Source of the DNA: an uncultured Candidatus Saccharibacteria bacterium
GTDB taxonomy: Bacteria; Patescibacteriota; Minisyncoccia; Phycocordibacterales; GWA1-40-21
Assembly: GCA_964562105.1 (NCBI GenBank)
Contig: CAZLRP010000002.1
Location: 19,222-83,221 of the forward strand
Direction: 5' to 3'
Length of the DNA stretch: 64,000 nt
Position 1 is the first letter of the stretch. Every line of letters begins with the position of its first letter. This document shows positions 6,527 to 23,016 of this stretch, one piece after another. The notes beneath the pieces are model-generated. The model did not search any database. It worked only from the letters and a program-made list of their open reading frames with translations, and was not told the origin of the DNA. A program made the position numbers and the translations under genes.

Positions 6527-6537
6527 TTATTAAATAC

Positions 6538-6575: not shown

Positions 6576-6577
6576 TT

Positions 6578-7017: not shown

Positions 7018-7047
7018 AATCTGCCTGTTTTCACAGGCAGATTTTAG
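7018..7047 (-). terminator. Hairpin (aaatctgcctg-ttttca-caggcagattt) just downstream of rpsP
   Basis: Perfect 11-bp stem with A/T flanks. Possible attenuator between rpsP and the KH gene. Confidence 0.5.
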
Positions 7048-7054
7048 AAGATCT

Positions 7055-7486
7055 TTATATTTCAGCTTTTATTTCTTCTTTTGGCAATTCCGTTGGAACA
7101 GGTTCCGAAGCTATTACTGGAGTTTCTGTTGGAGTTGGCTCCGCCTTCGAAGCTTTTGCAGTGGCTTCAGTTTTCACCGCATCTTCTTTTGCTTTTTTTG
7201 CGTTTATAATTTTATTTTTGGGAAGTACATTTATTTTCTTTCCGGTGACAATTTTTTGGTCAACAAGAAAATTGTGAACTGTATCTGAAACTTGAGCACC
7301 TTTTGAAATCCAGTATTTTACTTTTTCTGCATCTACATGATTATTGCCTTTTCCTTTCCTTGCATCATAAGAACCCAAAACTTCAACGGCTTTCCCGCTT
7401 TTTGGTCCGAACTTCGAGTCTGTAAGCACGATACGAAAAGTTGGTTCATGAACTCTTCCTACCCTTTGTAATCTAATTATTAACAT
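7055..7486 (-). CDS. rpsP: 30S ribosomal protein S16 with Lys/Ala/Glu-rich C-terminal tail
   Basis: MLIIRLQRVGRVHEPTFRIVLTD...YWISKGAQVSDTV matches bS16. Confidence 0.9.
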   Translation of the reverse strand: MLIIRLQRVGRVHEPTFRIVLTDSKFGPKSGKAVEVLGSYDARKGKGNNHVDAEKVKYWISKGAQVSDTVHNFLVDQKIVTGKKINVLPKNKIINAKKAKEDAVKTEATAKASKAEPTPTETPVIASEPVPTELPKEEIKAEI

Positions 7487-7531
7487 AGACGCCATAGTAA
7501 CAAAATATTTCAAAAAAGCAAGGCTTATGCT

Positions 7532-9604
7532 ATGCTTATTTCACAAATGAAAAAGAATAACAAATTCTGGAAAGAGAGAAGAAAAGACAACCGAAAGACT
7601 GAACACTCTGGCAAATTAAGGATTCTAAGTGGTAAAATCAAAGCCATCCGAGGACATACAGCCTATTTTATATCTGATATAAATAATATTTCAGTCGAAA
7701 TTTCTACAAGACAGATAAATACTGCAATGGCTGGAGATAAGGTTGAAATTAAGTTATTTAAAAAAAATAAAGCTGGGGTCCACGAAGGTGAAGTGGTAAA
7801 AATTCTAAGTCGCGCAAAAAATTATTTTGTCGGAACTATTGAATTGTCTGCCAAAGGTGTACTTGTGATTCCAGATGATAGAAGAATTAAAATTTCAGTA
7901 AAAATTACCCCGGAAAAAGCCATCGATTTAAAAAACAAGGATAAGGTTAGGGTAAAAATAATAAAATGGGTAGAAGCCCCTGCGTTTTCCGAAGGAGAGA
8001 TTGTAACTGTTTTAGGCAAAAAAGGAGATAATTCCACCGAGATGAATTCTATTGCGATAGATAAAGGTTTTGATATAGATTTTCCCGCGCAGGTTTTACA
8101 GGAATCCAAAAATATTTTCAATCAAAGCGCAAAAATTTCTTCCGAAGAAATCGCAAAGAGAAAAGATTTGAGAAATACGCTTACCTTTACGATTGACCCA
8201 AAAACTGCAAAAGATTTTGACGATGCAATTTCCTTTAAAAAACTCTCGAATGGAAATTTTGAAATTGGGGTTCATATCGCCGATGTATCTCACTACGTCA
8301 CAGAAAAAAGCGAGCTAGACAAAGAAGCTTATAAGCGAGGATGTTCCGTGTATCTTCCCGATAGAACGATCCCTATGCTTCCCTTTGAGCTTTCTGATAA
8401 CCTCTGCAGTTTGAGCGAAGGAGATGAAAAACTCGCCTTTTCAGCTATTTTTGAAATTAATCCTCATGCAAAAGTACTTTCAAAATGGTTTGAAAAATCT
8501 GTCATAAAATCTGCAAAAAGATTCACTTATGAAAGTGCCCAAGAAATTTTGAATGCAAAAACAGGTCAGCACTTTGAAGAGCTTAATACATTAAATAAAA
8601 TTGCAAAACTTTTGAGACGTGAAAAATTCCAAAAAGGCGCGATAGATTTTGAACAGGAAGAAATAGCTTTTGAACTAGACGAGGCTGGAAAACCTATAAA
8701 AATTTACAAAAAACAAAGACTTGATACTCACAAACTAGTTGAAGAATACATGCTTCTTGCAAACAAAGAAGTTGCTGAATATGTCTATAAATTTGAGAAA
8801 AAGTCCGGTAAACTGTTCCCTCTTCCGTATCGTATTCACGATTTTCCAGACAAAGATAGAATTTCCGAGCTCGCAGTTTTTGTAAAAGCTTTGGGACATG
8901 AGCTTATTATCGGAAAAACAGGAAGCATTACAGGAAAAGATATGCAGGCACTTTTTGCTCAAGTAGAAGGAAAAGCTGAAGAATCACTTGTAAAAACTGC
9001 TGCGATTCGCTCAATGTCAAAAGCAATCTACTCAACAAAAAATATCGGACATTTCGGACTGGCCTTTGAATATTACGCACACTTCACCTCGCCTATCAGA
9101 AGATATCCTGATCTTTTGGTTCACAGGATTTTGCAAAAAATACTTAGCAAAGACCGCAGTCAAATAAAAAGCCAATTTGACGGGGCAAGAAATATCGCCC
9201 ACGAAAAGTCTGCTGACCTCGTGGCAAGAGAAATAAATCTGGTATTTTACGAGAAAGCTTGTTCACACAGTACAGATCAAGAAATAAAAGCTTCCGAAGC
9301 AGAACGTGACGGAAGAAAATACAAACAAATAGAATATATGCAAGATAAAGTTGGAAAAACTTTTGACGGTATTATTACCGGCGTCACTGAATGGGGTATT
9401 TATGCGGAAGATTCGCAAACTAGAGCGGAGGGTATGATAAAGCTTTCTTCACTCGGAGATGACTTCTATAAACTTGATGCAAAAACTTATTCTGTAATCG
9501 GAGAAAAAACAAAACAAGTTTATTCGCTTGGACAAAAAGTAAAAATTAAACTAGTTTCTGCAGATTTAGACAAAAAGCAGATGGATTATGAAATAATTAG
9601 CTAA
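7532..9604 (+). CDS. rnr: Ribonuclease R (RNB-family 3'-5' exoribonuclease with C-terminal S1 domain)
   Basis: Cold-shock/OB N-terminus, RNB motifs (HFGLAFEYYAHFTSPIRRYPDLLVHR) and a C-terminal S1-like domain. Confidence 0.9.
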   Translation: MLISQMKKNNKFWKERRKDNRKTEHSGKLRILSGKIKAIRGHTAYFISDINNISVEISTRQINTAMAGDKVEIKLFKKNKAGVHEGEVVKILSRAKNYFVGTIELSAKGVLVIPDDRRIKISVKITPEKAIDLKNKDKVRVKIIKWVEAPAFSEGEIVTVLGKKGDNSTEMNSIAIDKGFDIDFPAQVLQESKNIFNQSAKISSEEIAKRKDLRNTLTFTIDPKTAKDFDDAISFKKLSNGNFEIGVHIADVSHYVTEKSELDKEAYKRGCSVYLPDRTIPMLPFELSDNLCSLSEGDEKLAFSAIFEINPHAKVLSKWFEKSVIKSAKRFTYESAQEILNAKTGQHFEELNTLNKIAKLLRREKFQKGAIDFEQEEIAFELDEAGKPIKIYKKQRLDTHKLVEEYMLLANKEVAEYVYKFEKKSGKLFPLPYRIHDFPDKDRISELAVFVKALGHELIIGKTGSITGKDMQALFAQVEGKAEESLVKTAAIRSMSKAIYSTKNIGHFGLAFEYYAHFTSPIRRYPDLLVHRILQKILSKDRSQIKSQFDGARNIAHEKSADLVAREINLVFYEKACSHSTDQEIKASEAERDGRKYKQIEYMQDKVGKTFDGIITGVTEWGIYAEDSQTRAEGMIKLSSLGDDFYKLDAKTYSVIGEKTKQVYSLGQKVKIKLVSADLDKKQMDYEIIS

Positions 9605-10093
9605 TTATTTCTCAAATTCTTGTAATAATTTAATATATTCTTGTTGTCTTTCTTTTATAACCCAATTCTCTCCTAGTAGATTAATTTTATTTTCATTTAT
9701 AATCCATTTACACATACCACAAAAAAATCCTTTTGGAGTTGCAATAAAAAGCCAGGGACAATTCCATCTATCTAAAAGTTTCTGCGCATGCGCTTTGATA
9801 TCATCCATATCTAGTAACTGTCGATATTTTACTTCCACGAGATAAAGTTCAGGTTTATTTTTTGATTTTAAATCTTCAGAGATTAAAACAAAATCTGGTG
9901 CTTCTGAAATGTTTTCAATAATATGTTTAATTTCCGTAAAATGATGTTGATATTGAGCAAGCATTGGCATTGTATATTCGTAGCCAAATGGAATAACTGT
10001 ATATCGTTTTTCATCTCGAATCATCTGTTCAAAAATAACTTCTGCTATTTTCCCTTTTATTAATTCTTTTGAAAATTTGATTTCTTTTTCCAT
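9605..10093 (-). CDS. Hypothetical PD-(D/E)xK nuclease-fold-like protein (about 163 aa from Met at 10093)
   Basis: PDFVLISED ... ELYLVEVKYRQ resembles the D...(D/E)xK restriction-endonuclease-like motif. The gene overlaps the 3' end of smc on the same strand. Confidence 0.45.
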   Translation of the reverse strand: MEKEIKFSKELIKGKIAEVIFEQMIRDEKRYTVIPFGYEYTMPMLAQYQHHFTEIKHIIENISEAPDFVLISEDLKSKNKPELYLVEVKYRQLLDMDDIKAHAQKLLDRWNCPWLFIATPKGFFCGMCKWIINENKINLLGENWVIKERQQEYIKLLQEFEK

Positions 10094-10103
10094 GTTATTT
10101 AAT

Positions 10104-12392
10104 TTATTTCGCCACCTCGACCGCCTCCTCAAACTGAATAGAAAGTAATCTTGAAACTCCATCTGAACCCATTGTCACTCCATAAATTACACCCGCACGA
10201 GACATTGTTTCTCTATTATGAGTAATAAGAATAAGCTGAGAGTATTTTGAAAGTTCGGTTATCATATCTCCATATTTTTTAGAATTGGCTTCATCAAGAG
10301 CCGCATCCGTCTCATCAAGAATAATAAATGGTGGCGGATTGACCTGAGAAATTGCAAAAAGAAGCGCGATGGATGTAAGAGCTCTTTCTCCACCAGAGAG
10401 CATCATCAAGCCCTTTATTTTTTTCTTCGGCAGATTTACTTCAATTTCCAAACCCTCTTCGGTTTCTTCCTCTTCTTCTTCGACTAATTCTTCACCGTCG
10501 GATTCTACAGGTAAATCCGTATCAAGTTTTTTTCTCTTCTTTTCTTTAACAACCGAAAGTGTGGCTGAACCTCCTCCAAACATTGCAGTAAAAAATTGCT
10601 GGAATTGAGTATTTATTTTAGCAACTCCAGTTTTAAATTCTGTTGTAAGCTTTTCTTCCAATTCTTTGATTAAATTCTTCAAAGATTCTGATGAATTGAT
10701 AAGGTCTACAAGTTCTTTTTCAAGGAAAGTGTCTCTTTCGGTAGTTTCTTTGTATTCTTTTACAACATCATCTCCACCAGAAACTCCGGCATCTTCTAGA
10801 CGAATTTTTATCTTTTCCATTGCGCGCTTTTTATCTTCCTGTACTTGTCTTCCTTCTTTGACAATCTGTTCCAAAGAAAGCGCTGAGCCGTCTGCATTTG
10901 TAGGCCAAAAATCTTTGTATCTAAGCGCGGAAATTCCTACTAAAATAGAAGCCTCTTGAAGTTCCCTGTTAAGCTCATCTTCGTCATGTTTCAATCTTGA
11001 TTCCCTATTTTCAAGTCCGTTTAACTTACCTCTTATTTCATTTTGTTCAGCAACAATTCTAAACAAAGATTTTTCGGCATCTCTGTTTGAATCCTTTTCT
11101 TTTTCAATATCGTTCTTCAAGAAGGAATATTGCTCAGAGAGTTCTGTTTCAATATTATTTGCTTCTTTTAATTTTTCTTCATGGCCCTTTTTCTCTGATT
11201 CAAGTTTTTTAATTTCTTCTTCCAAATCTGTGATAGCTTGTTTATCTTCATTTTCTTTGTTTCTTTCAATAAAATCACGAAGAATTTTTTTAATTGAAGA
11301 AAAAATTTCTTTTATTTTTGAAAAATCATGGCTTTCATTTACTCCATCAATTTCCAAATCTATTTGTTTAGAGATATTTTCAACAGCCGATAAATCCACT
11401 GTTTTTAAAGACTTTGCGGAATTTGCTTCGTGCTGTTTTTTAATCATCCTTTCTAGGGATGAAATCTCTCCTTCAATACGCCCAATACTCCTCATCAGAT
11501 TATCTTTTTGATTACGAGTTTCTTTGAGTTTTCCTTCTACTTTGATAACTTCCTCGCTTCTTGAGTCTTTAGAAGATGATTTCTCTAAAACTTGTTTTGC
11601 CTCGGCAAGTTCCCTTTCTAATTTGTGTGACATTTCAAGCAAAGGCTTTTTTTCGCTAGAAATGCTTTGTTTTTCATATTTAATATATTCTTCCTCACGC
11701 CTGAAATAATCGTGATACATTTTTGTAAGATCCTCCTTCATCTCAAACATCTTTTCTATCTTTTCCACTTGTTTTTTCAAAAACTTGATATGAGGAGCAA
11801 TCTCTCTTCTCAGGGATTCTACTTGCTTTATATTTTCTTCTGTCTTTTCAAGTTTGCGAACACTTTCATCTTTTTTGTTTTGATAAATCTTCAAACCTAA
11901 AGCATCTTCAATCATTTCTCTTCTCTCGCGAATGTTTGAATTTAAAACTTTATCGGCTTCTCCTTGAGAAATGATTTGATGGCCAGAAGCGCCGATATGC
12001 GCAGAAGAGAGCAGTTCAACAATATCTTTCAAACGAACAACGCTTCCATTTATAGAATATTCGCTTGAAGAGTCTCTATTCACGACACGTTCAATAGCAA
12101 CTTCGTCAAAGTCTATATTTAAAATCCTTTGGATATTATTGAAAACTAATTTAACAGAAGCACGATTTGAACGCGACGCATCTTTTCCTCCGTTAAAAAT
12201 AAGGTCTTCGGCTCTTTTACCTCTCAAAGATTTGATGGATTGCTCTCCCAAGACAAAGCTGAATGCTTCTGCAACATTTGATTTTCCTGAGCCGTTTGGC
12301 CCTACAATAGCAGAAATAGGAACATTAAAATCCAATACGGACTTTTTCCCGAATGATTTGAATCCCGATATTTCTATTGATTTTAGATACAT
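10104..12392 (-). CDS. smc: Chromosome segregation protein SMC, unusually short (762 aa), no recognisable hinge; acidic insert before the signature motif
   Basis: N-terminus MYLKSIEISGFKSFGKK...IVGPNGSGKSNVAEAFSFVLGEQS. C-terminus LSGGERALTSIALLFAIS...FIILDETDAALDEAN...ILITHNRETM. Conserved rnc-smc neighbourhood. Confidence 0.8.
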   Translation of the reverse strand: MYLKSIEISGFKSFGKKSVLDFNVPISAIVGPNGSGKSNVAEAFSFVLGEQSIKSLRGKRAEDLIFNGGKDASRSNRASVKLVFNNIQRILNIDFDEVAIERVVNRDSSSEYSINGSVVRLKDIVELLSSAHIGASGHQIISQGEADKVLNSNIRERREMIEDALGLKIYQNKKDESVRKLEKTEENIKQVESLRREIAPHIKFLKKQVEKIEKMFEMKEDLTKMYHDYFRREEEYIKYEKQSISSEKKPLLEMSHKLERELAEAKQVLEKSSSKDSRSEEVIKVEGKLKETRNQKDNLMRSIGRIEGEISSLERMIKKQHEANSAKSLKTVDLSAVENISKQIDLEIDGVNESHDFSKIKEIFSSIKKILRDFIERNKENEDKQAITDLEEEIKKLESEKKGHEEKLKEANNIETELSEQYSFLKNDIEKEKDSNRDAEKSLFRIVAEQNEIRGKLNGLENRESRLKHDEDELNRELQEASILVGISALRYKDFWPTNADGSALSLEQIVKEGRQVQEDKKRAMEKIKIRLEDAGVSGGDDVVKEYKETTERDTFLEKELVDLINSSESLKNLIKELEEKLTTEFKTGVAKINTQFQQFFTAMFGGGSATLSVVKEKKRKKLDTDLPVESDGEELVEEEEEETEEGLEIEVNLPKKKIKGLMMLSGGERALTSIALLFAISQVNPPPFIILDETDAALDEANSKKYGDMITELSKYSQLILITHNRETMSRAGVIYGVTMGSDGVSRLLSIQFEEAVEVAK

Positions 12393-12459
12393 TGAACCTA
12401 TATTATCAGATTATTTGATAAAAAAAAGACCGGCAAAAATAGCTTTATTTTTGAGAAAG

Positions 12460-12789
12460 CTATTTTTGTTCCTGTAAAGATTTGAGATTCCTTATGAATG
12501 ATTCTATTTCTCCATCTTCGGTATCAAAATATTTATAGTTTGACAGATCAAAAGTATCTTCAGAAGAAAGTAAAACCCCTCCTAAAAAATAATCTTTTAA
12601 TTTCAGACCGGCATTTTCAAATTCTTTTTTGAAATCATTTATTGAGGTTGCAACTTCATAAGCATCATTTGAATCAACAAAAAATTTGGGCAGAGATGAC
12701 ATAATATCCAAAAGTTCGGCAAATTTTTGTTGTCGTTCATTTTGTTCTTGCTGTTCTGCCGATGAAAAATCTTCTTTAAATTCTTCCAT
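12460..12789 (-). CDS. Acidic hypothetical protein, 109 aa
   Basis: ORF between rnc and smc on the same strand. An A/T-rich hairpin lies at 12421-12453, downstream. Confidence 0.45.
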   Translation of the reverse strand: MEEFKEDFSSAEQQEQNERQQKFAELLDIMSSLPKFFVDSNDAYEVATSINDFKKEFENAGLKLKDYFLGGVLLSSEDTFDLSNYKYFDTEDGEIESFIRNLKSLQEQK

Positions 12790-12795
12790 AAAAAA

Positions 12796-13497
12796 TTAAT
12801 TTGCTGACCAATCTTTGGCAGAAAGTGCGTTGTTTGCGGCAACTTGTTCTGCTTCTTGTTTTGATTTACCTTCACCTTCCGCAACTTTAGTTTTATCCAG
12901 ATATACGCCTACTGTAAACTTTTTATCGTGATCCGGGCCTTCTTCTTTTAATGTTTTATAAAGCGGCGTTATACCTTCATAATCCTGCGCCTGTTCTTGA
13001 AATTTGCTTTTTGCATCAAGCCATGTTTTTTCTTCAATTATTTTTTCTATCAGATTAAAGATGTTGTTTGAGATAAAATATTTTGCTACATCATATCCCT
13101 GATCCAAAAAAATCGCTCCGATCAAAGCCTCTATCGCATTTGCTAAAATAATCTGCCTTGCCCGTCCAACATCTTTAGCTTCGCCTTTTGAAAGCAATAA
13201 AAAATCATTCATATTTATTTTCCCCGCAGCATCCGAAAGAGTGTTCGCGTTGACAAGCGCAGATCTATAGGCAGTAAGCTCGCCTTCATTGCTGTCGGGA
13301 TATTTTACATAAAGATACTCGGTAACGATAAGTTCAAGCACGGCATCTCCTAAAAATTCCAATCTTTCGTTGTGAACCAACTCTGAATCTTTGTGTTCAT
13401 TCAAATAAGACCTGTGCGTAAAGGCTTGTTTTAATATATTTTTATCTTTAAAGATAATTCCTATTTTTTTTTCGAAGTTTGAAAAATCGGGTTTCAT
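12796..13497 (-). CDS. rnc: Ribonuclease III
   Basis: HRSY...NERLEFLGDAVLELIVTEYLY signature plus a C-terminal dsRBD (KSKFQEQAQ...GEGKSKQEAEQVAANNAL). Confidence 0.9.
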   Translation of the reverse strand: MKPDFSNFEKKIGIIFKDKNILKQAFTHRSYLNEHKDSELVHNERLEFLGDAVLELIVTEYLYVKYPDSNEGELTAYRSALVNANTLSDAAGKINMNDFLLLSKGEAKDVGRARQIILANAIEALIGAIFLDQGYDVAKYFISNNIFNLIEKIIEEKTWLDAKSKFQEQAQDYEGITPLYKTLKEEGPDHDKKFTVGVYLDKTKVAEGEGKSKQEAEQVAANNALSAKDWSAN

Positions 13498-13518
13498 AAA
13501 TTATGATTTATTATTTTT

Positions 13519-13655
13519 ATCCGCACACTAATTCTATCATCGTTGCATCGTGTTCTTAATATCAGTAAATATTATGTTGTTTATTAAGTAAGTTTAATTT
13601 TATATAACTAATCTCTCTGCGCAACAAAAACACAATGATAGAGTTAGTGTGCGGA
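13519..13655. repeat. Family-A palindromic element copy 1 (about 137 bp; termini CCGCACAC...GTGTGCGG with 35-nt arm complementarity)
   Basis: Left arm tccgcacactaattctatcatcgttgcatcgtgtt and right arm gcaacaaaaacacaatgatagagttagtgtgcgga. The right 35 nt are identical to the copy at 52862-53000. The element overlaps the last 4 codons and stop of the nusB-Nudix gene and ends 22 nt before the rnc start codon. Confidence 0.7.
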
Positions 13656-14543
13656 CTTGCTACTTATTATTGTTATAGCTTTTGTGATGATCGGCAATAT
13701 ATCATTATAAAAATTAAGGTTTTGAATTTCTTGAAGCTTGAACCATTTGGCATCATCAAGGCCTCCGCTGTCTCCGCGTTTTAATTCTGTTCTCTCGGCT
13801 TTTGCAAGAAAATATATCACCTGTTTTCTTATTTTTCCTTCTTCGGGATGATTTGCCACATATTCATTTTTTAAAAGTTCATCTTCAATCGTGATATCAA
13901 TACCCATTTCTTCTTTTATTTCCCTCACCGCTCCTATTTTTGGATCTTCGCCTGCATCTATCTTTCCTTTTGAAAGAGTCCACTTCCCAAAAACATCGTG
14001 AACGAGAGCAAAATAAATATTTCCGTCTTCAACACTATAGACCACAGCTCCCGCGAGTTGTTTTATCGGCATTTGCTCAAACGGAACATCTTTATGTTTT
14101 TTAGAAACTTCGTCTTTGCCTGGCTCTCCAAGCTCTTTGTATATAGTGCCCAAAACTCCATTTATAAAGCCTCCGCTCTTTTCTCCGCTGTAAGTTTTTG
14201 CAAGCTCAATAGCTTCGTTAATTGCAACTTTTGCCGGAACTTCTTTTCTATCAGAGAACAACAGCTCATAAAGCCCCAGACGCAAAATATTTCTGTCGGC
14301 GATAGAAATTTTTTCTATCGGCCAGTCAGGCGCAGCTTTTACAATAATACTGTCCAAATCCGTTTTTTTATCAATTATTCCTTTCAAAAGATTTTCGGAA
14401 AAATTTTTTTCTGCATTTCCCTCTCCAAATTCTTTATTATTTCTTTCTAGAGATAATAAAGCTTCTTCTCTTGAAGAATTTCTAAAATCCCACTCAAAAG
14501 CGGATTGAAATACTATTGATCTTGCAAGGTGCCTGCTAAACAT
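13644..14543 (-). CDS. nusB: NusB (antitermination factor)-Nudix hydrolase fusion protein
   Basis: N-terminal half is NusB-like (ARSIVFQSAFEWDF...VAINEAIELAKTYSGEKSGGFINGVLG). C-terminal half has a Nudix box (GKWTLSKGKIDAGEDPKIGAVREIKEEMG). Confidence 0.75.
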   Translation of the reverse strand: MFSRHLARSIVFQSAFEWDFRNSSREEALLSLERNNKEFGEGNAEKNFSENLLKGIIDKKTDLDSIIVKAAPDWPIEKISIADRNILRLGLYELLFSDRKEVPAKVAINEAIELAKTYSGEKSGGFINGVLGTIYKELGEPGKDEVSKKHKDVPFEQMPIKQLAGAVVYSVEDGNIYFALVHDVFGKWTLSKGKIDAGEDPKIGAVREIKEEMGIDITIEDELLKNEYVANHPEEGKIRKQVIYFLAKAERTELKRGDSGGLDDAKWFKLQEIQNLNFYNDILPIITKAITIISSKSAH

Positions 14544-14744
14544 ATGATTTCTTTGAACTTTTTAATCCGTCTCAGACGGATATGGCTTATTTATCACTGC
14601 ACGTATTCTATCTCAAAGCTAAAAAAAAGAAAAGGCTTCGCAGTAAAAAATATTATTGCAAAAACTTTTTTAATAAAACAAAGAAGTTTCCGTTGATTTA
14701 AAATATTTCTCAAGATATTATTATCCCCATTTCAGCAATAAAAT

Positions 14745-14775
14745 AAAAAATACCCTTTTGGGTATTTTTTTATTG
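14745..14775 (-). terminator. Intrinsic terminator downstream of rpmF (aaaaaataccc-tttt-gggtattttttt)
   Basis: Hairpin plus T-run just 3' of the rpmF stop. Confidence 0.55.
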
Positions 14776-14776
14776 C

Positions 14777-14986
14777 CTATGCTTTTTTCTCAGATTTTTT
14801 AGAGGTTTTTGATTTTTTTGTCTTTTTTTCAAGGTTTATCACAACTCTCCCTCTGTATTTTCCGCAATTTGAACATGCCTGATGCCTCATCACAGGATTA
14901 TTGCAATCTGGGCACTTTGTAAGTGCAATCCCCTTCAAAGCATGATGTGATCTCGTGCTTCCTCTCTGGGATCTATTATGTCTCAT
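14777..14986 (-). CDS. rpmF: 50S ribosomal protein L32
   Basis: MRHNRSQRGSTRSHHAL...CPDCNNPVMRHQACSNCGKYRGRVVI, a bL32 zinc-ribbon pattern. Start taken at the internal Met of the 73-aa ORF. Confidence 0.8.
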   Translation of the reverse strand: MRHNRSQRGSTRSHHALKGIALTKCPDCNNPVMRHQACSNCGKYRGRVVINLEKKTKKSKTSKKSEKKA

Positions 14987-15039
14987 TCTATTTACCATAG
15001 TGAAAAAGAGTATAGCTTATTTTCTTAAAAAAGAAAAGC

Positions 15040-15078
15040 CCGTGAGATTTTTTTCGTAAAATCTCACGGGCCTTAAAA
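15040..15078 (-). terminator. Terminator hairpin (gcccgtgagatttt...aaaatctcacgggc)
   Basis: 14-bp stem followed by a T-run on the minus strand, 3' of gene 15082..15516. Confidence 0.55.
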
Positions 15079-15081
15079 AAT

Positions 15082-15516
15082 TTAGATTCTGAATGTTTTA
15101 TCAACCCGTGACATATCGTCAACAGCTTTGATAAATGCTTTCTGGTAGTTCATAAAGAGTTTTGCTAAAAATTCTTTAGGAGCCCATAAACAGATTTTCA
15201 ACGTTTCTTCGTTTGTTCTTTTTACAATTATTTCTTCACCGGGGACTATTTTTCCGGAGATTTCAGTAACCAAAAAAAATACTTTATTATTCTCTCCGTC
15301 TTCCCGATAAACTTCTCGAAATTTTATAGGGGTTAATTTTTTGTTTGTATTTCCCAAAAATTCTCGTACAAGTGTTTGATCAAACCTTTCTGGATATTTT
15401 CCATATCCTCCCAAAGGCTTCACCTTATCGGGGTCTCTAATATCAGTAGCTCCCAGTATATACCATGCGCCTCCTATCCTAATGATACAAAATGCCACAC
15501 AATACCAACTTTTCAT
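15082..15516 (-). CDS. Nudix-fold paralog with a degenerate Nudix box (likely catalytically inactive)
   Basis: WYILGATDIRDPDKVKPLGGYGKY...VREFLGNTN aligns with the neighbour's WKVLGATDSRFPNDAKIPGGTNKD...KREFYEETG, but the REx2EE glutamates are lost. Confidence 0.5.
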   Translation of the reverse strand: MKSWYCVAFCIIRIGGAWYILGATDIRDPDKVKPLGGYGKYPERFDQTLVREFLGNTNKKLTPIKFREVYREDGENNKVFFLVTEISGKIVPGEEIIVKRTNEETLKICLWAPKEFLAKLFMNYQKAFIKAVDDMSRVDKTFRI

Positions 15517-15657
15517 TTTGTCCTCCAGTCATTGATGTTTTACTTCTATTTGTAGTTTTATCATATTGATACAATACGTCAAGCAATTTAAATAATAAGA
15601 AAACCCTAAAAACTCCACTCGCGTAAAATTTTTAGGGTTTTAAAAATAGCTTAAAAA

Positions 15658-16182
15658 CTAGAACTTCATCACGGAAAATCTATCATACATCTCTAGATTA
15701 TCTTGACGAAACTTTTCATCGGAGTTCGCCATCGCAAGAAAAGCTTTAACAAAACCATTTCTGTGATTGATAAGAAGTGCTTTCTCAAAATCCTGAAGAG
15801 TCCACCAACGAACTTTTATCTTGTCTTTATCGTCGGTAAATTCCCTGATGAAATCAAACGGAAAATTTCCTGTAGCATTTTTCACCAAATAAAAATACCT
15901 GGTGTGTATGGTTCCTTTGACTCTACCAGGAATCTTTACGAAATGGGCTTGAAGACATTCACCGTTTGTCCTAAACCCAGTTTCCTCATAAAACTCGCGT
16001 TTTAAGGTATCGCCCGGTGTTTCTTCAATCAATTCCTTCGTCTCATCATCTTTATTCGTACCCCCTGGAATTTTAGCATCGTTTGGGAAACGAGAATCCG
16101 TGGCACCGAGAACTTTCCACCGGTTATCTTTCGTATCAAAACTGAAATAAACTCCTGCCGAAAAATGATCGCTGGTATTCAC
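15658..16182 (-). CDS. Nudix hydrolase
   Basis: Nudix box IPGGTNKDDETKELIEETPGDTLKREFYEETGF. Confidence 0.75.
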   Translation of the reverse strand: MNTSDHFSAGVYFSFDTKDNRWKVLGATDSRFPNDAKIPGGTNKDDETKELIEETPGDTLKREFYEETGFRTNGECLQAHFVKIPGRVKGTIHTRYFYLVKNATGNFPFDFIREFTDDKDKIKVRWWTLQDFEKALLINHRNGFVKAFLAMANSDEKFRQDNLEMYDRFSVMKF

Positions 16183-16371
16183 TTTTCCCTCCTAGGGAAA
16201 CAAAATTTAAAAAAGACCTTAATTAATTGGTCTACCGCTAATAGTACACTTTTATTTCAATTTGTCAAGTTTAATGACTATTCGTTTTAACGGCTAAAAA
16301 TGAAATTTGTAAAAAGAGAATCCGCGCAAGCTTTATATTAGCCTGCGCGGATTTATAACTCGTACTCTAAA

Positions 16372-16737
16372 TCAATAAGGACTATTACCACTCCATTTAT
16401 ACACATGAATAAACCCGTCGGGATCTTTCCATACCATATTCAATATTGATTTAGCTTTAATGGTAATAGAATATCTTGTCGCCAAACATGTCTCCATACC
16501 GTATTTCGGATCATCCACCGACATTTCTCTTTCACCAAGAGATTCTAAATGTAAATCTTTAGTATTACTAATGAGAAATCTTTCTTTCATCAACTTGGTA
16601 ATATAGCGATCCAGGTTTTTTTCTTTAGGAAAATTTACTATGGGAGGAACTTTTAATCCGGTCATTTTCTTTTCTTCCATCAAAAAACCATAGGAAGCAA
16701 CGTCGCTTGTAATGTACAGTACGATTTTTTTCTTCAT
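16372..16737 (-). CDS. Hypothetical protein (about 122 aa from the MKKKIVLY Met)
   Basis: ORF with a downstream 10-bp-stem hairpin (aatccgcgca...tgcgcggatt) at 16330-16365. Confidence 0.4.
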   Translation of the reverse strand: MKKKIVLYITSDVASYGFLMEEKKMTGLKVPPIVNFPKEKNLDRYITKLMKERFLISNTKDLHLESLGEREMSVDDPKYGMETCLATRYSITIKAKSILNMVWKDPDGFIHVYKWSGNSPY

Positions 16738-16808
16738 ATTAATCCCCTTTTTGCTCAATTTAATGAGTGTTTTTTGATTCAAATTACTATCTCTCTACAT
16801 TATAGCAC

Positions 16809-17468
16809 TTATAAAATATTTGTCAATAGATTTTTACAAAAATATTTCCTATGTTCAAAACAAAGACCATGTTTTTTTATGGAGTCACAATGTCTTTTCG
16901 TACCATACCCCTTGTGTATTTCAAAAGAATATTTTGGATATTTTTTCGCAAGTCTGCACATCAGAGCGTCTCTTGAAACTTTTGCAATAATTGAAGCAAA
17001 AGCTATCGCTCTTTCTTTTTCATCGCCTTTTATGATAGTTTTTTGGTTTTTGTATTTTTCCGGAGCTTTTAGTCCCCCGTCAAGTAATACCAGGCATTCT
17101 TTCGGTTTTAGTTTGAGTTTTTCTAAAGATTTTTTTAAGCAATTTTTAATCGCTTTGCTTATTCCAAATTTATCAATTTTTTGAGCGCTTTCATAACTTA
17201 CACAATAATCGATAGTTTTTTCTTTCTTAATCATTCTTAATTTTTCAAAAATTTCTTCTCTTTTTTCTGGAGTCAATTTTTTTGAATCTTTTATCCTGCC
17301 AAAGTTTTTTGTATTAAAATTCAATGGCATTTTGAAAGCACAAACTGCCACCGGGCCTGCAAGAGGCCCTCTACCCACTTCATCTATTCCCACAACAAAT
17401 TTTATTTTGGAAGCCACCCCATAAGGATTTTTTACATATATTTTTTTACTTTTCAAATTTGATTTCAT
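16809..17468 (-). CDS. rnhB: Ribonuclease HII
   Basis: FVVGIDEVGRGPLAGPVAVCAF, the RNase HII catalytic motif. Confidence 0.85.
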   Translation of the reverse strand: MKSNLKSKKIYVKNPYGVASKIKFVVGIDEVGRGPLAGPVAVCAFKMPLNFNTKNFGRIKDSKKLTPEKREEIFEKLRMIKKEKTIDYCVSYESAQKIDKFGISKAIKNCLKKSLEKLKLKPKECLVLLDGGLKAPEKYKNQKTIIKGDEKERAIAFASIIAKVSRDALMCRLAKKYPKYSFEIHKGYGTKRHCDSIKKHGLCFEHRKYFCKNLLTNIL

Positions 17469-17570
17469 ATAAATTTTAATTCGCGCATTATGTATTATTT
17501 TCCATTGAAAATCCTAACGGGGCAAGACTTTTTATTTTTCATAAACTAAAGTATTATTAATAGTAACATT

Positions 17571-20500
17571 ATGCCTAAATTTATTCATTTACATACGCAC
17601 AGTCACTACAGTTTGCTTAACGCCCTGCCTAAATTAAAAGAGCTTATTCATACAGCAAAAGATTTAGATATGCCGGCTCTTGCTTTGACAGACGCAGGAA
17701 ATATGTACGGAGCAATTGAATTTTATCAGAATTGCAAAAAGAACGGGATTAAACCGATTATCGGAGTAGATTTTTATGTCGCTGCAAGAACTCGCACTGA
17801 CAAACAAGGAGGCGTAGATAATCGCCGAACTCGCCTAGTTCTTTTAGCAAAAAATGAAATCGGCTACAAAAATCTTATAAAACTTGTCACTGATTCTTAT
17901 TTTGAAGGATTTTATTATAAGCCAAGAATAGATCGCGAGCTCATAGAAAAATATTCTGATGATTTGGTCTGCATTATGCCACATTTTTCTGGAGAAACTT
18001 CCCACGCCTTAAAAAATGGAGACATTGAAAAAGCTGAAAATATTATAAATTGGTATAAAAAAGTTTATGGGAAAGAAAATTTTTTCTTGGAAGTAACACA
18101 TCATCCTGAAATAGAAGGACAGATTGAACTCAAAGAAAAAATTATAAAATTAGCAAAAGAAACGAACACTCAGATTGTAGCAGGACACGATGTTTATTAT
18201 CTTAAACCAGAAGATAAAATGGCCCGAGATACACTTGTCCAAGTAAATTCGCATTCGGACTTTTCAGACCGAGAGCAAAAAGAAAGCGCTGATGATTTTT
18301 CTTTTATCTCATCTGAAAAAGCAGAAGAATATTTTAAAGATATTCCGAAAGCTTTGGAAAACACGCTTAAGATTGCGGATATGTGTAATATTGAAATAAA
18401 GCTTGGTAAAGAAGCGTGGGTATTTCCAGACTTTGTAGTAGAAAGTGGCCTTACACACGATGAAGAATTAAAAAGGCTCACATATCTTGGCATAGATAAA
18501 AGAAATCTTTCGCATTCAAAAGAAGTTATAGATAGAGTTGAATACGAACTTAAAATCATCAAAGATAAGGGTTATTCAAAATATTTTCTTGTGGTATCCG
18601 ACTTGTTACGTTTTTCTGCAGAAAATGGAATCTATACGAACATCAGAGGTTCGGTCGCAGGATCAATCGTCACATATCTCACCGGCATTACAAAAGTAAA
18701 TCCGCTTGAATACAAACTTCCCTTCGAAAGATTCCTTAATCCTGAAAGACCTTCGGCACCCGATATTGATATGGACTTCGCCGACAACAGACGAGACGAC
18801 GTCATAAATTATACAAGACAAAAATATGGAAAAGATAATGTCGCACAAATTGGAACTTTCGGTACGATGATGGCTCGAGGTGCCGTCCGAGATGTTGCAA
18901 GAGCAATGGGCTTTCCGCTTCCCCTTGCCGATAAAATTGCCAAACTTGTGCCTTTGGGCGCGCAAGGTTTTCCGATGACCCTCAAAAAAGCACTTAGAGA
19001 TGTTCCGGAACTTAAAGAAATGTATGATAACAATAAAGATACAAAAACTATCATAGATATGGCAGAAAAAATTGAGGGATGTGCACGACATATTTCTGTT
19101 CACGCAGCCGGAGTTGTAATAGCACCAACAGCACTTACAAAGTATGTTCCGCTTCAATATGATCCTAAAGGCGAAGGGAAAATTATCACTCAATATGACA
19201 TGCACACCGTCGGTGAAGACGGCGTTGGACTTTTGAAATTTGATTTTCTTGGAATAAAAAATCTTTCAATACTTGCTGATGCCGTAGACAGAGTTAAAAA
19301 AATTGAAAATATAGATTTGGATATTGAAGCTATCCCACTTGATGATAAATTGACTTTTGAAATGCTTGCCCGTGGAGAAACCACCGGTCTTTTTCAGCTT
19401 AACGGCTCTGGAATGACAAAATATCTGAAAGATTTGAAACCAACAACTATCCATGATATCAACGCTATGGTTGCTCTTTATCGCCCAGGACCTATTGAAA
19501 TGATCCCCGAATATATAGACAGAAAACATCATCCTGAAAAAATAAAATATCTTGATCCGCGACTTAAAGAAATTCTTGATCAATCTTACGGGGTTATTAC
19601 ATATCAGGACGACGTCATGCTTACTGCTATAAAACTCGCGGGATATTCTTGGCTTGAAGCAGACAAACTTAGAAAAGCTATGGGTAAAAAAATCCCCGCA
19701 GAAATGCAAGCTCAGAAAGAAAAACTCTTAAAAGGTTTTGTTGAACACGGACTCACTGAGAAAAAAGCAGACACTCTTTGGAAACTCATTGAACCTTTTG
19801 CCGCTTACGGATTCAACAAAGCTCACGCTGCAAGTTATGGAAGAGTTTCTTATCAAACCGCTTATATGAAAGCAAACTTCCCCGCAATTTACATGTCTTC
19901 CGTGCTTACAGCAGATTCAGGGGATGTAGAAAAAATCGGCGAATTTATAACAGACTGCAAAAAAATGGGGATTCCAGTATTACCTCCATCCGTCAATGAA
20001 AGCTTCAGCGATTTCACTGTTGTAAAAACTCCTAGTGTAAGTCCACACGGAACTGGGCCAGATAGAGATAAAATTCGTTTTGGTCTTACAACAATTAAAA
20101 ATTTCGGTGAAGGAATTTCAAAAACCATTATTCACGAAAGAAAAGCAAAAGGTAAATTTAAATCTCTTTCAGATTTTCTTGAAAGAATTCAGACTAAAGA
20201 TATGAATAAGAGATCTCTTGAAGCTCTTATAAAAACCGGTGCACTTGATGACCTGCCTGCGCAGTCAGGATTTGCAGATAGAGGTGTCATGCTCGCAAAT
20301 ATGGAAAATCTTTTGAGATACAATAAAGAAGTAAGTAAACGAGACCAAAATCAGGATTCCCTTTTTGGAATTTTTGATGGTAATAACACACCAGATGACA
20401 CAAAAAAATATGAGGCCTTTACTCTTGAATCCGCAGAAAAAGCTACAATGAAAGACAAGCTCGCTTGGGAAAAAGACTTGCTCGGACTTTATATTTCTGG

Positions 20501-20843
20501 TCATCCTCTTGATAAATACAGAGCCACTTTGGAAAAACAGCCGATAAACATAAAAAGAATTATAGAAGAAACAGAAACTGTCAAAAAAGAAATTGATGGT
20601 GGCAAACCAATCGGTGGAATCATAGAAGAGGTTCGAGAAATTATGACAAAAAATAATGAGCCCATGGCTTTCATCAAAATTGCTGATTTCACCGGTTCAA
20701 TTGACGCTGTGGTCTTCCCAAGAACTTATTCACAATTTAAATCCGCCATCGCTCCCGATAAATGTATCGCAGCAATATGCAAAGTTTCAGAAAGAAATGG
20801 AGAAATAAGTTTGATTATTGAGAGGTTAAAGGTTTTGGAATAG
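17571..20843 (+). CDS. dnaE: DNA polymerase III alpha subunit
   Basis: PHP domain FIHLHTHSHYSLLNALPK, polymerase core, OB-fold C-terminus. 1090 aa. Confidence 0.9.
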   Translation: MPKFIHLHTHSHYSLLNALPKLKELIHTAKDLDMPALALTDAGNMYGAIEFYQNCKKNGIKPIIGVDFYVAARTRTDKQGGVDNRRTRLVLLAKNEIGYKNLIKLVTDSYFEGFYYKPRIDRELIEKYSDDLVCIMPHFSGETSHALKNGDIEKAENIINWYKKVYGKENFFLEVTHHPEIEGQIELKEKIIKLAKETNTQIVAGHDVYYLKPEDKMARDTLVQVNSHSDFSDREQKESADDFSFISSEKAEEYFKDIPKALENTLKIADMCNIEIKLGKEAWVFPDFVVESGLTHDEELKRLTYLGIDKRNLSHSKEVIDRVEYELKIIKDKGYSKYFLVVSDLLRFSAENGIYTNIRGSVAGSIVTYLTGITKVNPLEYKLPFERFLNPERPSAPDIDMDFADNRRDDVINYTRQKYGKDNVAQIGTFGTMMARGAVRDVARAMGFPLPLADKIAKLVPLGAQGFPMTLKKALRDVPELKEMYDNNKDTKTIIDMAEKIEGCARHISVHAAGVVIAPTALTKYVPLQYDPKGEGKIITQYDMHTVGEDGVGLLKFDFLGIKNLSILADAVDRVKKIENIDLDIEAIPLDDKLTFEMLARGETTGLFQLNGSGMTKYLKDLKPTTIHDINAMVALYRPGPIEMIPEYIDRKHHPEKIKYLDPRLKEILDQSYGVITYQDDVMLTAIKLAGYSWLEADKLRKAMGKKIPAEMQAQKEKLLKGFVEHGLTEKKADTLWKLIEPFAAYGFNKAHAASYGRVSYQTAYMKANFPAIYMSSVLTADSGDVEKIGEFITDCKKMGIPVLPPSVNESFSDFTVVKTPSVSPHGTGPDRDKIRFGLTTIKNFGEGISKTIIHERKAKGKFKSLSDFLERIQTKDMNKRSLEALIKTGALDDLPAQSGFADRGVMLANMENLLRYNKEVSKRDQNQDSLFGIFDGNNTPDDTKKYEAFTLESAEKATMKDKLAWEKDLLGLYISGHPLDKYRATLEKQPINIKRIIEETETVKKEIDGGKPIGGIIEEVREIMTKNNEPMAFIKIADFTGSIDAVVFPRTYSQFKSAIAPDKCIAAICKVSERNGEISLIIERLKVLE

Positions 20844-20846
20844 TAT

Positions 20847-20875
20847 TTGACTTATAAAACTCAATTGACTATCAT
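20847..20875 (+). promoter_or_regulatory. Sigma70-like promoter TTGACT-17-TATCAT for the thrS leader
   Basis: TTGACT at 20847-20852 and TATCAT at 20870-20875, 17-bp spacer. Confidence 0.5.
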
Positions 20876-20881
20876 AGACAC

Positions 20882-21042
20882 ATAGAAATTGGTGGCTACC
20901 AACCACAATTATGACGATTTCTATATTAAAAGAGAACTCTGCTTCGCATGAAGCTACGCAGGGCAAGAAATCGGGTGGAACCGCGAGTAGAATCGCCCCG
21001 ACAAAAAACGATAACTCGTTTTTTGTCGGGGCTGTTTTATTT
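20882..21042 (+). ncRNA. T-box riboswitch leader (tRNA-Thr-responsive by context) with terminator/antiterminator
   Basis: Conserved T-box sequence AAATCGGGTGGAACCGCGAG at 20968-20987. Immediately followed by a terminator (ccccgacaaaaaacga...tcgttttttgtcgggg + T-run, 20996-21042). Stem-I-like helix ATAGAAAT/ATTTCTAT (20882-20924) with ACC-A and ACG-A candidate specifiers. Upstream of thrS. Confidence 0.7.
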
Positions 21043-21079
21043 AAACATACGAATATACAAATATTACTAATGGTACAAA

Positions 21080-21158
21080 TGGCTACAAATAATTAATTCG
21101 TTTCGAATTTATTCGTAGCCATTCGTATCATTCGCATAATTCGTTAATTCGTAATAAC
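21080..21158 (+). promoter_or_regulatory. ATTCGTA heptamer direct-repeat array (motif copy A) in the thrS 5' region
   Basis: attcgtt..attcgtagcc attcgtatc attcgcata attcgtta attcgtaa with about 9-10 bp spacing, plus a flanking near-IR ATGGCTACAAATAA / TTATTCGTAGCCAT. Homologous to 29404-29449 and 36193-36250. Confidence 0.55.
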
Positions 21159-21169
21159 ATCATAAAAAT

Positions 21170-22960
21170 ATGGAAAACGAAAAATTACACAGAATGAGAC
21201 ACTCGCTCGCCCACATACTTGGCGCAGCTGTTATCGAATTGTATCCTGATGTAAAAATAGCAACAGGTCCAGCAATTGAAAACGGTTTTTATTATGATTT
21301 TGATTTTTCCGCACCGATTACAGACAAAGACCTTGGAAAAATTGAGCAAAAAATACGTGAACTTTCAAAAAAAATAAAATCTTTTGATAAAGCAGAAATT
21401 TCGGAGAATGATGCAAAGAAACTTTTCGCAGACAATCCATATAAACTTGAGCTTATAGATGAATATGCAAAAGACGGAAAAACTCTTACTGCTTATACTT
21501 CGGGAGATTTTACAGACCTTTGCGCAGGCCCTCACGTAGAAAGTATGGATGAAATTAAAAATAGCGCTTGGAAACTTGAAAGGCTTGCCGGAGCATATTG
21601 GAAAGGAGATGAAAACAATAAAATGCTTACAAGAATTTACGGCTTAGCATTTCCAACAAAAGAAGAACTTGATGCATACGAAAAACAACAAGAAGAAGCT
21701 AAGAAAAGAGATCATAGAAAGCTTGGAAAAGATTTAGATCTTTTTCACATGGATGAAAAAGTTGGGCTCGGTCTCCCTTTATGGCATCCAAAAGGAGCTA
21801 TGCTATGGAGAATCATTGAAGATTTTTGGTATCAGGAGCATCTCAAAAATGACTACGATTTAGTAAGAAGCCCGCATATAGGTAAAAAAGAATTATGGGA
21901 AACATCAGGTCATTGGGGTTTTTATAATTCAAGCATGTATCCTCCGCTTGAAGCAGGACAAACATTGAAAGAAAAACAGGAAGGTAAAAAAATTGAACAT
22001 TCTGAGGAATACTTACTTAAACCAATGAATTGTCCTTTTCATGTTCAGATATATAAAAACAGTCCAAAATCCTACAGAGAATTCCCTTTCAGATGGGCAG
22101 AATGTGGAACGGTTTACAGATTTGAGAAAAAAGGTGAACTTTCCGGACTAACTAGAGTAAGAGGATTCACACAAGACGACGCACACATACTTTGTAGAAA
22201 AGATCAGGTTGAAGATGAATTAAAAAGAGTCATTGATTTTATTTTATTTATTTATAAATCTTTTGGTTTTGATATTAGTTCAGTAAAGGTATTTCTTTCT
22301 TTGAGAGATCCAAATAATAAAGAAAAATATGCCGGTAATGATGAAGGTTGGGATTTTACTGAAGAAGTTTTAAGAAAAGTTGCCATAGAGAAAAAACTTG
22401 ATTTTGCAGAAGAAAAAGGAGAAGCGGCATTTTATGGACCAAAACTTGATTTTAAAGTCAAAGATGCTCTAGGAAGATTGTGGCAATGTTCCACACTACA
22501 ATTTGATTTTAATTTGCCTGAAAGATTTGATCTAACATTCATGAATTCAAAAAGCGAACAAGAAAGACCATACATGCTTCATAGAGCTCTCTTTGGAAGC
22601 TTTGAAAGATTTATAGGACTACTCATTGAACATTATTCTGGTGCATTCCCTCTCTGGCTCGCACCCGTGCAAATAAAAATAGTTCCGATAAGAGAAAATC
22701 ATAACGAGCATGCAGAAAAAATTTCTAAGGAACTAAAAGATGCTGGGTTCAGAGTAGATTGCGATACAAAAGAAGGAAATATGGGAGGAAAAGTTCGCGA
22801 TGCAAAAAATAATAAAATTCCTTATACGATAATCATCGGAGACAAAGATATTGAAGCTAAAAAAATATCAGTGGAATCAAGAGATAAAGGACAGCTCGGT
22901 CAGATGGATTTGAAAGATTTTATTGAAAAGATTGAAAAAGAAAAGGAAAACAGAGAGTAA
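21170..22960 (+). CDS. thrS: Threonyl-tRNA synthetase (lacks N-terminal TGS domain)
   Basis: HSLAHILGAAV editing-domain start, class-II core (FRWAECGTVYRFE, GFTQDDAHI), C-terminal anticodon-binding domain. Confidence 0.9.
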   Translation: MENEKLHRMRHSLAHILGAAVIELYPDVKIATGPAIENGFYYDFDFSAPITDKDLGKIEQKIRELSKKIKSFDKAEISENDAKKLFADNPYKLELIDEYAKDGKTLTAYTSGDFTDLCAGPHVESMDEIKNSAWKLERLAGAYWKGDENNKMLTRIYGLAFPTKEELDAYEKQQEEAKKRDHRKLGKDLDLFHMDEKVGLGLPLWHPKGAMLWRIIEDFWYQEHLKNDYDLVRSPHIGKKELWETSGHWGFYNSSMYPPLEAGQTLKEKQEGKKIEHSEEYLLKPMNCPFHVQIYKNSPKSYREFPFRWAECGTVYRFEKKGELSGLTRVRGFTQDDAHILCRKDQVEDELKRVIDFILFIYKSFGFDISSVKVFLSLRDPNNKEKYAGNDEGWDFTEEVLRKVAIEKKLDFAEEKGEAAFYGPKLDFKVKDALGRLWQCSTLQFDFNLPERFDLTFMNSKSEQERPYMLHRALFGSFERFIGLLIEHYSGAFPLWLAPVQIKIVPIRENHNEHAEKISKELKDAGFRVDCDTKEGNMGGKVRDAKNNKIPYTIIIGDKDIEAKKISVESRDKGQLGQMDLKDFIEKIEKEKENRE

Positions 22961-23008: not shown

Positions 23009-23016
23009 TTACTTTT

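Follow-up and report, generated by a model that had tools for sequence, protein, structure and literature searches.

A Nudix domain appended to the housekeeping NusB of a Paceibacteria clade, with relaxed constraint on its catalytic box

Results

Locus and architecture of the fusion protein

We analysed a 64-kb stretch of DNA from contig CAZLRP010000002.1 (numbered 1..64000 and referred to here as the window). Its GC content is low, at ~34%, and the proteins that match it most closely carry the names Candidatus Paceibacterota or Parcubacteria. A series of genes on the minus strand comprises, in order, rnhB, an orphan gene encoding 136 amino acids (aa), a 174-aa Nudix gene, a 144-aa Nudix-like gene, rpmF, a fusion of nusB with a Nudix domain (nusB::nudix), rnc, a small hypothetical gene and a short smc. 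The fusion gene, which is the subject of this report, is a single uninterrupted open reading frame (ORF) encoding 299 aa (13644..14543, minus strand), and a 100% identical copy of its product is present in NCBI (P0001).

The protein is composed of an all-helical NusB domain (residues 1-140; 14124..14543, translation checked), a linker of variable length among orthologues (approximately residues 141-158; 14070..14123) and a Nudix domain (residues 159-299; 13647..14069), all encoded on the minus strand. The Pfam NusB model (PF01029) spans residues 7-136 with an E-value of 8.6e-33 and 114 bits against a cutoff of 23.1, and the NCBIfam equivalog model for nusB, TIGR01951 (cutoff 88.35), is matched with 124.6 bits. 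The NUDIX model (PF00293) covers residues 181-281 (E = 1.9e-14; 54.2 bits, gathering cutoff 21.1). Within this region, the Nudix box GKIDAGEDPKIGAVREIKEEMGI (residues 193-215; 13899..13967, minus strand) is an exact fit to the consensus GX5EX7REUXEEXGU; it is intact here and degenerate in most orthologues. The equivalog, the two Pfam domains and the consensus fit bear out the original prediction, made from the sequence of the window, of a complete NusB domain followed by a C-terminal Nudix domain with an intact box.

A model of the fusion protein was built with AlphaFold2 on 45 family members, and is confident overall, with a predicted local distance difference test (pLDDT) of 92.5 and a predicted template modelling score (pTM) of 0.71. 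The NusB half forms seven helices across residues 2-138 with pLDDT values above 90, and the C-terminal half adopts the alpha/beta fold of a Nudix domain, for which a Foldseek search returned Nudix matches. The linker is modelled with low confidence, and its residues 145-150 form a disordered stretch (pLDDT below 50). When the NusB half was superimposed onto Aquifex NusB from the NusB-NusE-boxA complex (PDB code 3r2c), a template modelling (TM) score of 0.89 and an r.m.s.d. of 1.8 were obtained. Foldseek gave matching values for the NusB proteins of 3r2c, 3r2d and 4eya (TM 0.89, r.m.s.d. 1.7-1.8), and the antitermination complexes 6tqn and 6tqo were also among the NusB matches. The NusB half of the fusion is a bona fide NusB.

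The Nudix half resembles diadenosine-polyphosphate hydrolases

By sequence and fold, the best PDB matches of the Nudix half are 3i7u, 9cxx, 1vc8, 4mpo, 1ktg and 3u53/4ijx, and the nearest solved relatives are all diadenosine-polyphosphate (ApnA) hydrolases. The top match is Aquifex aq_158 (3i7u), with 30% identity and TM scores of 0.87-0.89. Other near relatives are the N-domain of M. tuberculosis Rv2985/MutT1 (9cxx), T. thermophilus Ndx1, Chlamydia CT771, and the C. elegans and human diadenosine tetraphosphate (Ap4A) hydrolases. The W-T-L-S-K-G motif of the ApnA-hydrolase group is present, and a tyrosine (Y228, in EYVA; NYVA in the human enzyme) lies 13 residues past the box, the same spacing as in aq_158, with whose tyrosine it is aligned. 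Y228 is conserved in 87% of the family (101 representatives). As read from the sequences, it appears to be the ApnA specificity tyrosine, Y87 of the human enzyme (1XSC numbering), a residue that touches the adenine in human Ap4A hydrolase (PMC5389931). On these grounds of sequence and fold, we assign the Nudix half to the ApnA-hydrolase / aq_158-type subfamily.

The enzyme aq_158 strips 5'-triphosphates as well as 7-methylguanosine (m7G), NAD, FAD, nucleoside tetraphosphate (Np4) and sugar caps off RNA, and its E51A mutant is dead (PMC13145063). The counterpart of E51 in the fusion is E212. Since aq_158, the best-matching solved member, deprotects RNA 5' ends, the RppH-like action suggested in the original prediction is plausible as chemistry for the window's fusion protein, and the aq_158-type fold fits it; membership of the RppH family, however, fails. 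The NCBIfam RppH models (PRK00714) produced partial matches only, at 25.6, 21.4 and 12.4 bits against cutoffs of 118, 116 and 259.

Two further assignments were considered and rejected. The model for the MutT1 8-oxo-(d)GTP phosphatase/Rv2985 (NF052459) scored 41.8 bits against 475, with the Nudix part alone aligned, and the RsmB model scored 56.6 bits against a cutoff of 319, the fusion having no methyltransferase domain. PADLOC matched the Nudix half to the candidate family PDC-S07 only, and PHROGs returned a generic Nudix match.

The fusion gene occupies the position of nusB

The conserved neighbours of nusB::nudix are rpmF (ribosomal protein L32; 14777..14998, minus strand) upstream, followed by a terminator-like hairpin at 14745..14770, and rnc (RNase III; 12796..13497, minus strand) downstream. 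A terminator-like site was looked for between nusB::nudix and rnc, and none was found; in relatives, the two genes are separated by 5-18 nt. The order rpmF-nusB-rnc(-smc) is common to loci with the fusion and to ~30 loci with a stand-alone nusB, and the stand-alone NusB proteins are 50-63% identical to the NusB half of the fusion. Given this shared gene order and NusB identity, the fusion is by its position the orthologue of the housekeeping nusB; the Nudix domain has therefore been added at the 3' end of nusB, before rnc. No second nusB was found within the 64-kb window. We conclude that 13644..14543 is the housekeeping nusB of a Paceibacteria bacterium of the Candidate Phyla Radiation (CPR/Patescibacteria), with an aq_158-type Nudix domain appended.

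A scan of the whole window with Rfam at gathering thresholds returned one tRNA (32515..32587) and no rRNA, riboswitch or other RNA family; no rRNA leader lies within the 64 kb.

Distribution of the fusion

The fusion was followed in a close set, consisting of the best 120 clusters from a collection of 5.8 billion proteins (72-100% identical, from many independent assemblies), and a GTDB set, consisting of the best 80 loci from GTDB species representatives. Both Pfam domains are present in all 120 clusters, in proteins of ~298-300 aa, and 51 of the 80 GTDB species loci encode NusB and Nudix as one uninterrupted ORF. An exhaustive search of 50%-identity representatives added ~60 full-length fusions, with identities down to 33%. 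Titled fusion records among the GTDB loci include Kaiser-, Zambryski-, Nomura-, Ryan-, Niyogi- and Komeili-bacteria. The ~30 GTDB loci with a stand-alone NusB of ~140-150 aa come from Yanofsky-, Azam-, Moran-, Wildermuth- and Staskawicz-bacteria and others, and no related Nudix gene was found within 4 kb of nusB in these. A Rosetta-stone origin, from an adjacent gene pair, finds no support on this account.

In a neighbour-joining (NJ) tree of the NusB domain, which is crude, most fusions fall into one large clade and a handful are found among stand-alone sequences. The latter could be due to additional gains or losses, or just to a poorly resolved tree. The ancestor of the large clade gained a C-terminal Nudix domain, inserted between nusB and rnc, and the fusion is the normal form of the housekeeping nusB in this large clade of Paceibacteria. 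The architecture had been called unusual; this holds against bacteria in general, but not within the clade.

Damaged copies of nusB::nudix were observed in three relatives. One locus (L088:542-1462) has a TAA at the Tyr135 codon, and the reading frame is broken in two others (L048 and L051). The cause may be sequencing errors or real pseudogenisation; in the second case, the housekeeping nusB would be inactivated in these organisms.

Decay of the catalytic box

Seven positions of the Nudix box were tallied across the family (G193, E199, R207, E208, E211, E212 and G214). The canonical set is found in 58 of the 120 close homologues, in 19 of the 51 GTDB loci and in 17 of 91 representatives of 50%-identity clusters. 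When redundancy was removed, 101 full-length fusions remained, of which 31 have canonical boxes, 4 show conservative changes only and 66 have non-conservative losses; at least 15 independent transitions between intact and broken boxes can be counted on an NJ tree. Conservation among these 101 representatives is 37% for E208, 69% for E211 and 84% for E212. Box glutamates are already lost in some proteins that are 85-90% identical to the fusion, and at ~87-89% identity the box reads DKIKEGEELRDGAIRGVKEKMGI (RGVKEK, P0033 type) or ...RKIKEE....

The catalytic glutamates are essentially invariant in genuine Nudix enzyme families, where they form the REUxEE part of the box. Domain conservation in the close set places E208, E211 and E212 at the 27th-40th percentile, and W188, K192, Y228, Y244, W267 and Y279 are invariant. 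The latter six were also followed in a dead-box subset, 31 members in which three or more of five catalytic residues are gone: K192, Y244 and Y279 are kept in 94-97% of them, W188 and W267 in 87-90%, and Y228 in 77%. The Nudix half as a whole is under purifying selection, with intact ORFs, domain E-values mostly between 1e-40 and 1e-55 and a mean pairwise identity of 0.36 (0.50 for the NusB half). The catalytic residues are thus under relaxed constraint while another set of residues is strictly kept. Because non-catalytic residues are 77-97% conserved in the 31 dead-box members, the Nudix domain seems to be retained for something besides catalysis. With the box broken in most relatives and K192, Y228, Y244 and Y279 kept at ~90-100%, hydrolysis looks optional and binding conserved. 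These data contradict catalysis as the conserved role of the fusion, and the action on RNA or nucleotides suggested in the original prediction needs revision to this extent: the box glutamates are among the less conserved residues and are lost in about two thirds of the representatives. An inactivation of this kind is on record for the NUDT9-H domain of TRPM2, in which box substitutions abolish activity (PMC4974056, PMC6461439).

Tandem small Nudix genes in a variable slot

Upstream of rpmF, the region up to rnhB (RNase HII; 16809..17468, minus strand) contains two further Nudix-type genes on the minus strand. The first (15658..16182) encodes 174 aa and matches PF00293 with 31.7 bits against 21.1. 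It has a promoter-like site at 16241..16268 and a terminator-like hairpin at 15600..15641. The second (15082..15516) encodes 144 aa, has REFLGNTN in place of REUxEExG, and is followed by a terminator-like hairpin at 15035..15074. The two proteins share 28% identity with an E-value of 6e-12 and are paralogues. The 144-aa protein has no Pfam match, yet it is modelled confidently with a Nudix fold (pLDDT 95.2), and all its Foldseek matches are Nudix proteins. The two glutamates of its EE pair are gone (REFLGN), as is the C-terminal tail 'DNLEMF.RYSAMKF' of its relatives; P0280, which is 45% identical to it, still carries REFKEETDG.

These observations, and similar pairs in relatives, agree with the description of the two genes as a tandem of an active-looking and a degenerate Nudix, for which enzyme and pseudo-enzyme is a fair label. 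The box of the 174-aa protein had also been called canonical, which is correct for the REFYEETGF half but not for the spacing between the glycine and the first glutamate. A 7-residue insertion in the G...E loop lengthens this spacing from 5 to ~12 residues (GGTNKDDETKELIEE); in the degenerate copy, the distance is normal.

In a word-indexed search of the 5.8 billion proteins, only 12 members of the small-Nudix family came up. A direct phmmer scan showed that in relatives, too, the rnhB-rpmF slot can contain divergent members. The slot of L084 holds a 174-aa copy and a degenerate 164-aa copy, that of L004 (L004:2236-3625) an intact copy with REYHEETGL and a degenerate one, and that of L025 (L025:2963-3463) a single intact copy. 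In L001 (L001:3410-4533) and L002, one degenerate Nudix copy is accompanied by a HIT-family (DcpS_C-like) hydrolase, and in L003 the slot is empty. Every one of the small genes comes with a terminator-like hairpin of its own, and two of them also with a good sigma-70-like promoter upstream. The tandem small Nudix genes are a fast-evolving, lineage-restricted cassette. The slot in the window (15000..16800) is a small variable island, and two hydrolase folds with ApnA or cap-like substrates, Nudix and HIT, share it among relatives.

A functional coupling of the tandem pair to nusB::nudix was considered and dropped, with no link evident, given that the slot content varies among relatives and that the genes have their own signals. 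A defence or phage origin is not supported either: there is no PADLOC match, and PHROGs gave only a generic Nudix match for the 174-aa protein.

The 136-aa ORF (16372..16782, minus strand) lies in the same slot region, and an identical gene is present in L086. Pfam, NCBIfam, PHROGs and PADLOC gave no match for it, and a comparison with the GTDB loci and those of the relatives found no homologue. A perfect sigma-70 consensus is located upstream (TTGACA-16-TATAAT with extended TG; promoter-like site 16826..16799), and a strong terminator-like hairpin downstream (16353..16319).

Other Nudix genes and neighbours in the window

Five Nudix domains had been counted in the window, and the remaining two were confirmed with the Pfam NUDIX model. 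The first belongs to a canonical Nudix gene on the minus strand (53437..53910; E = 1.5e-17). A cytidylyltransferase-like gene with a SEC-C zinc motif at its end overlaps it with its 3' end (region 53437..54379), an arrangement resembling the NadM/NMNAT-Nudix (ADP-ribose pyrophosphatase) pairs. With a start at 53910, the longest ORF extends 56 nt into the upstream gene; translation probably begins at the internal Met that had been given originally, at 53865. The fifth Nudix gene is gmm-like (61670..62152, plus strand; E = 2.6e-13). It lies between the genes for a GDP-mannose 4,6-dehydratase (60626..61666) and an NAD-dependent epimerase (62154..63101), which is the classic context of a GDP-mannose mannosyl hydrolase and supports its earlier naming as gmm.

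Typical bacterial SMC proteins have ~1,150-1,200 aa. The SMC homologue of the window (10104..12392, minus strand) has only 762 aa, and those of relatives L001 and L003 have 758-791 aa; the coiled coil must therefore be much shortened. The short smc is conserved downstream of rnc in most loci. Between rnc and smc lies a small acidic ORF of 109 aa (12460..12789, minus strand) with no family match. The corresponding position is occupied by weak homologues in L003 and L004 and by unannotated genes of similar size in L001 and L002; the ORF may be a conserved small partner gene.

Discussion

Both domains of the fusion are known, and the proteins have been deposited publicly, annotated simply as 'NusB'. 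The value of the present analysis lies in recognising the architecture and its odd pattern of conservation rather than in a new fold. A literature search for NusB-Nudix fusions, including those of Parcubacteria, found no description of this architecture, and a 2017 review of the Nudix clan does not mention NusB (PMC5389931). The N-terminal 140 residues share with described NusB proteins a score above the equivalog cutoff, the helical fold, and the rpmF-nusB-rnc position seen in sister Patescibacteria. Described NusB proteins, however, stand alone and have ~130-150 aa, whereas the fusion adds a C-terminal extension of ~160 residues formed by the linker and the Nudix domain.

The Nudix half has in common with aq_158 (the 'Omnivore RNA pyrophosphatase', an Ap4A/Ap5A/Ap6A hydrolase; 3I7U/3I7V) and with its ApnA-type kin (T. 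thermophilus Ndx1, Chlamydia CT771, human NUDT2, the C. elegans Ap4A hydrolase and the MutT1/Rv2985 N-domain) the W-T/S-x-P/S-K-G motif, the box, the specificity tyrosine and the aromatic residues. Those enzymes are stand-alone proteins or, in MutT1, are joined to a histidine-phosphatase domain, and here the partner is NusB. Their activity needs the box glutamates, as the dead E51A mutant of aq_158 demonstrates, whereas orthologues of the fusion are often without them. RppH (the E. coli NudH type) shares the proposed chemistry at RNA 5' ends and the broad ApnA-hydrolase-like Nudix group, but the fusion is no member of that family. A precedent for the overall layout is the 16S rRNA methyltransferase RsmB/Sun, in which an RNA-targeting module of NusB fold precedes a domain acting on rRNA; the NusB half gives sub-threshold matches to RsmB models. 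The fusion differs in lacking the methyltransferase, and its NusB half is a true NusB equivalog and not an RsmB-type paralogue.

How, then, might the Nudix half be used? Any hydrolysis that it performs appears, from the pattern of box losses, to be dispensable across the family. We favour, if tentatively, the view that its lasting role is the binding of an adenine-type nucleotide or of a phosphorylated or capped 5' end, with hydrolysis as an optional extra. Judging from its family membership, the NusB half would bind boxA RNA and ribosomal protein S10 on the transcribing RNA polymerase, mainly at rRNA leaders, and the flexible linker of ~20 residues would hold the Nudix half near the nascent leader RNA. 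There, as its conservation pattern suggests, the Nudix half would bind either an adenine-type nucleotide or the transcript's 5' end in phosphorylated or capped form. It could in this way keep the 5' end of the leader with the antitermination complex, upstream of processing by RNase III. Since the metal-binding box is intact in the window genome, the domain may there still convert 5'-triphosphate or capped ends, or ApnA, in the manner of aq_158.

Regulators with a degenerate Nudix domain provide precedents for such a role. NUDT9-H of TRPM2 acts as a ligand sensor in spite of its dead box (PMC4974056, PMC6461439), and in TRPM2, NrtR and DBC1 alike a Nudix domain with a degenerate box, attached to a regulator, binds a nucleotide rather than cleaving it (PMC4974056, PMC6461439, PMC5389931). 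The Nudix domain of NrtR (3gz8), a second sensor precedent, is among the fold matches of the fusion. These three are Nudix domains of the ADP-ribose type with other partners, whereas the fusion is of the ApnA type, and in the fusion family intact and degenerate boxes coexist among close orthologues. Several points weigh against a binding role. The conserved aromatic residues W188, W267, Y244 and Y279 could belong to the structural core and not to a ligand pocket. Catalysis may be important in some lineages, because the box is perfect in the window genome and in about one third of the family, and variants in which RE is changed to RK, RV or RI might keep some activity. The NJ trees, moreover, are crude, and the number of independent box losses is approximate.

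The fusion might instead exist for the sake of hydrolysis, with NusB delivering an active RppH/aq_158-like RNA 5'-pyrophosphohydrolase, a decapping enzyme or an ApnA hydrolase co-transcriptionally to boxA transcripts. The perfect box of the window protein, the ApnA-type tyrosine and PKG-like lysine of its Nudix half, and the removal by aq_158, its best homologue, of triphosphate and diphosphate ends and of NAD, FAD, Np4 and m7G caps from RNA are all consistent with this explanation, as are the RNA-processing neighbours (rnc downstream, RNase R nearby). We nevertheless consider it unlikely: the REUxEE glutamates are below the average conservation of the domain even among orthologues that are 72-100% identical, the box is broken in 66 of the 101 representatives, at least 15 separate times, and the best score against the RppH models is far under its cutoff (25.6 versus 118 bits).

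Alternatively, the Nudix fold could have turned into a protein-protein module with no nucleotide or RNA ligand, for which RNA polymerase, S10, NusA/NusG and RNase III would be candidate contacts. SuhB offers a parallel, being a protein with an enzyme fold that has a non-catalytic role in the rRNA antitermination complex of E. coli. A decayed catalytic box in a strictly kept fold is what such a module would show, the pTM of 0.71 is a hint, for a protein of two domains, that these have some preferred packing, and non-enzymatic Nudix proteins that take part in protein interactions are on record (PMC5389931). The residues that are kept, however, include the ApnA tyrosine and the lysine of W-T-x-x-K-G, which face the substrate in homologues and would not be expected of a new interface, and this explanation is doubtful as well.

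That nusB became joined to a neighbouring Nudix gene through chimeric assembly, a frameshift or the loss of a stop codon is practically inconceivable: the short contig L088 does show NusB and Nudix as separately called genes, and L048 and L051 are broken into pieces, but L088 (P0269) differs only by its in-frame TAA at the conserved Tyr135 codon, with both parts in the same frame, the other stand-alone candidate, L087 (P0199), is a fragment cut by the contig start, so that neither is a genuine two-gene form, the intact single ORF recurs in more than 120 independent clusters and 51 GTDB species loci, and relatives with a stand-alone NusB have no related Nudix gene nearby. An assembly artefact is thus excluded as the origin of the fusion, and the frameshift that had been named as the way in which the original prediction could fail is not what the 120 clusters and 51 loci show.

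NusB is a universal, minimal antitermination factor, and its fusion to a Nudix domain throughout a clade suggests that the antitermination complex is physically linked to the 5' end, or nucleotide state, of nascent rRNA. To our knowledge, no such link has been described for model bacteria. A more specific form of the binding role, which we regard as quite improbable at present, would make the NusB-tethered Nudix domain a reader of the transcript 5' end (triphosphate or cap) or of an ApnA-type alarmone, with hydrolysis as an optional reset. If so, rRNA antitermination and RNase III-dependent leader processing would be coupled in CPR bacteria to 5'-end status or nucleotide stress, and the reset would have been kept in some lineages, including that of the window genome, and lost in others. 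The Nudix half could, on the same assumption, be a lineage-specific stand-in for accessory factors of rRNA antitermination. The fusion also offers direct access to how rRNA is transcribed and processed in CPR bacteria, which are uncultivated and whose reduced genomes are without many accessory factors. The presence of intact and dead boxes in close orthologues constitutes a natural experiment for separating binding by the Nudix domain from hydrolysis.

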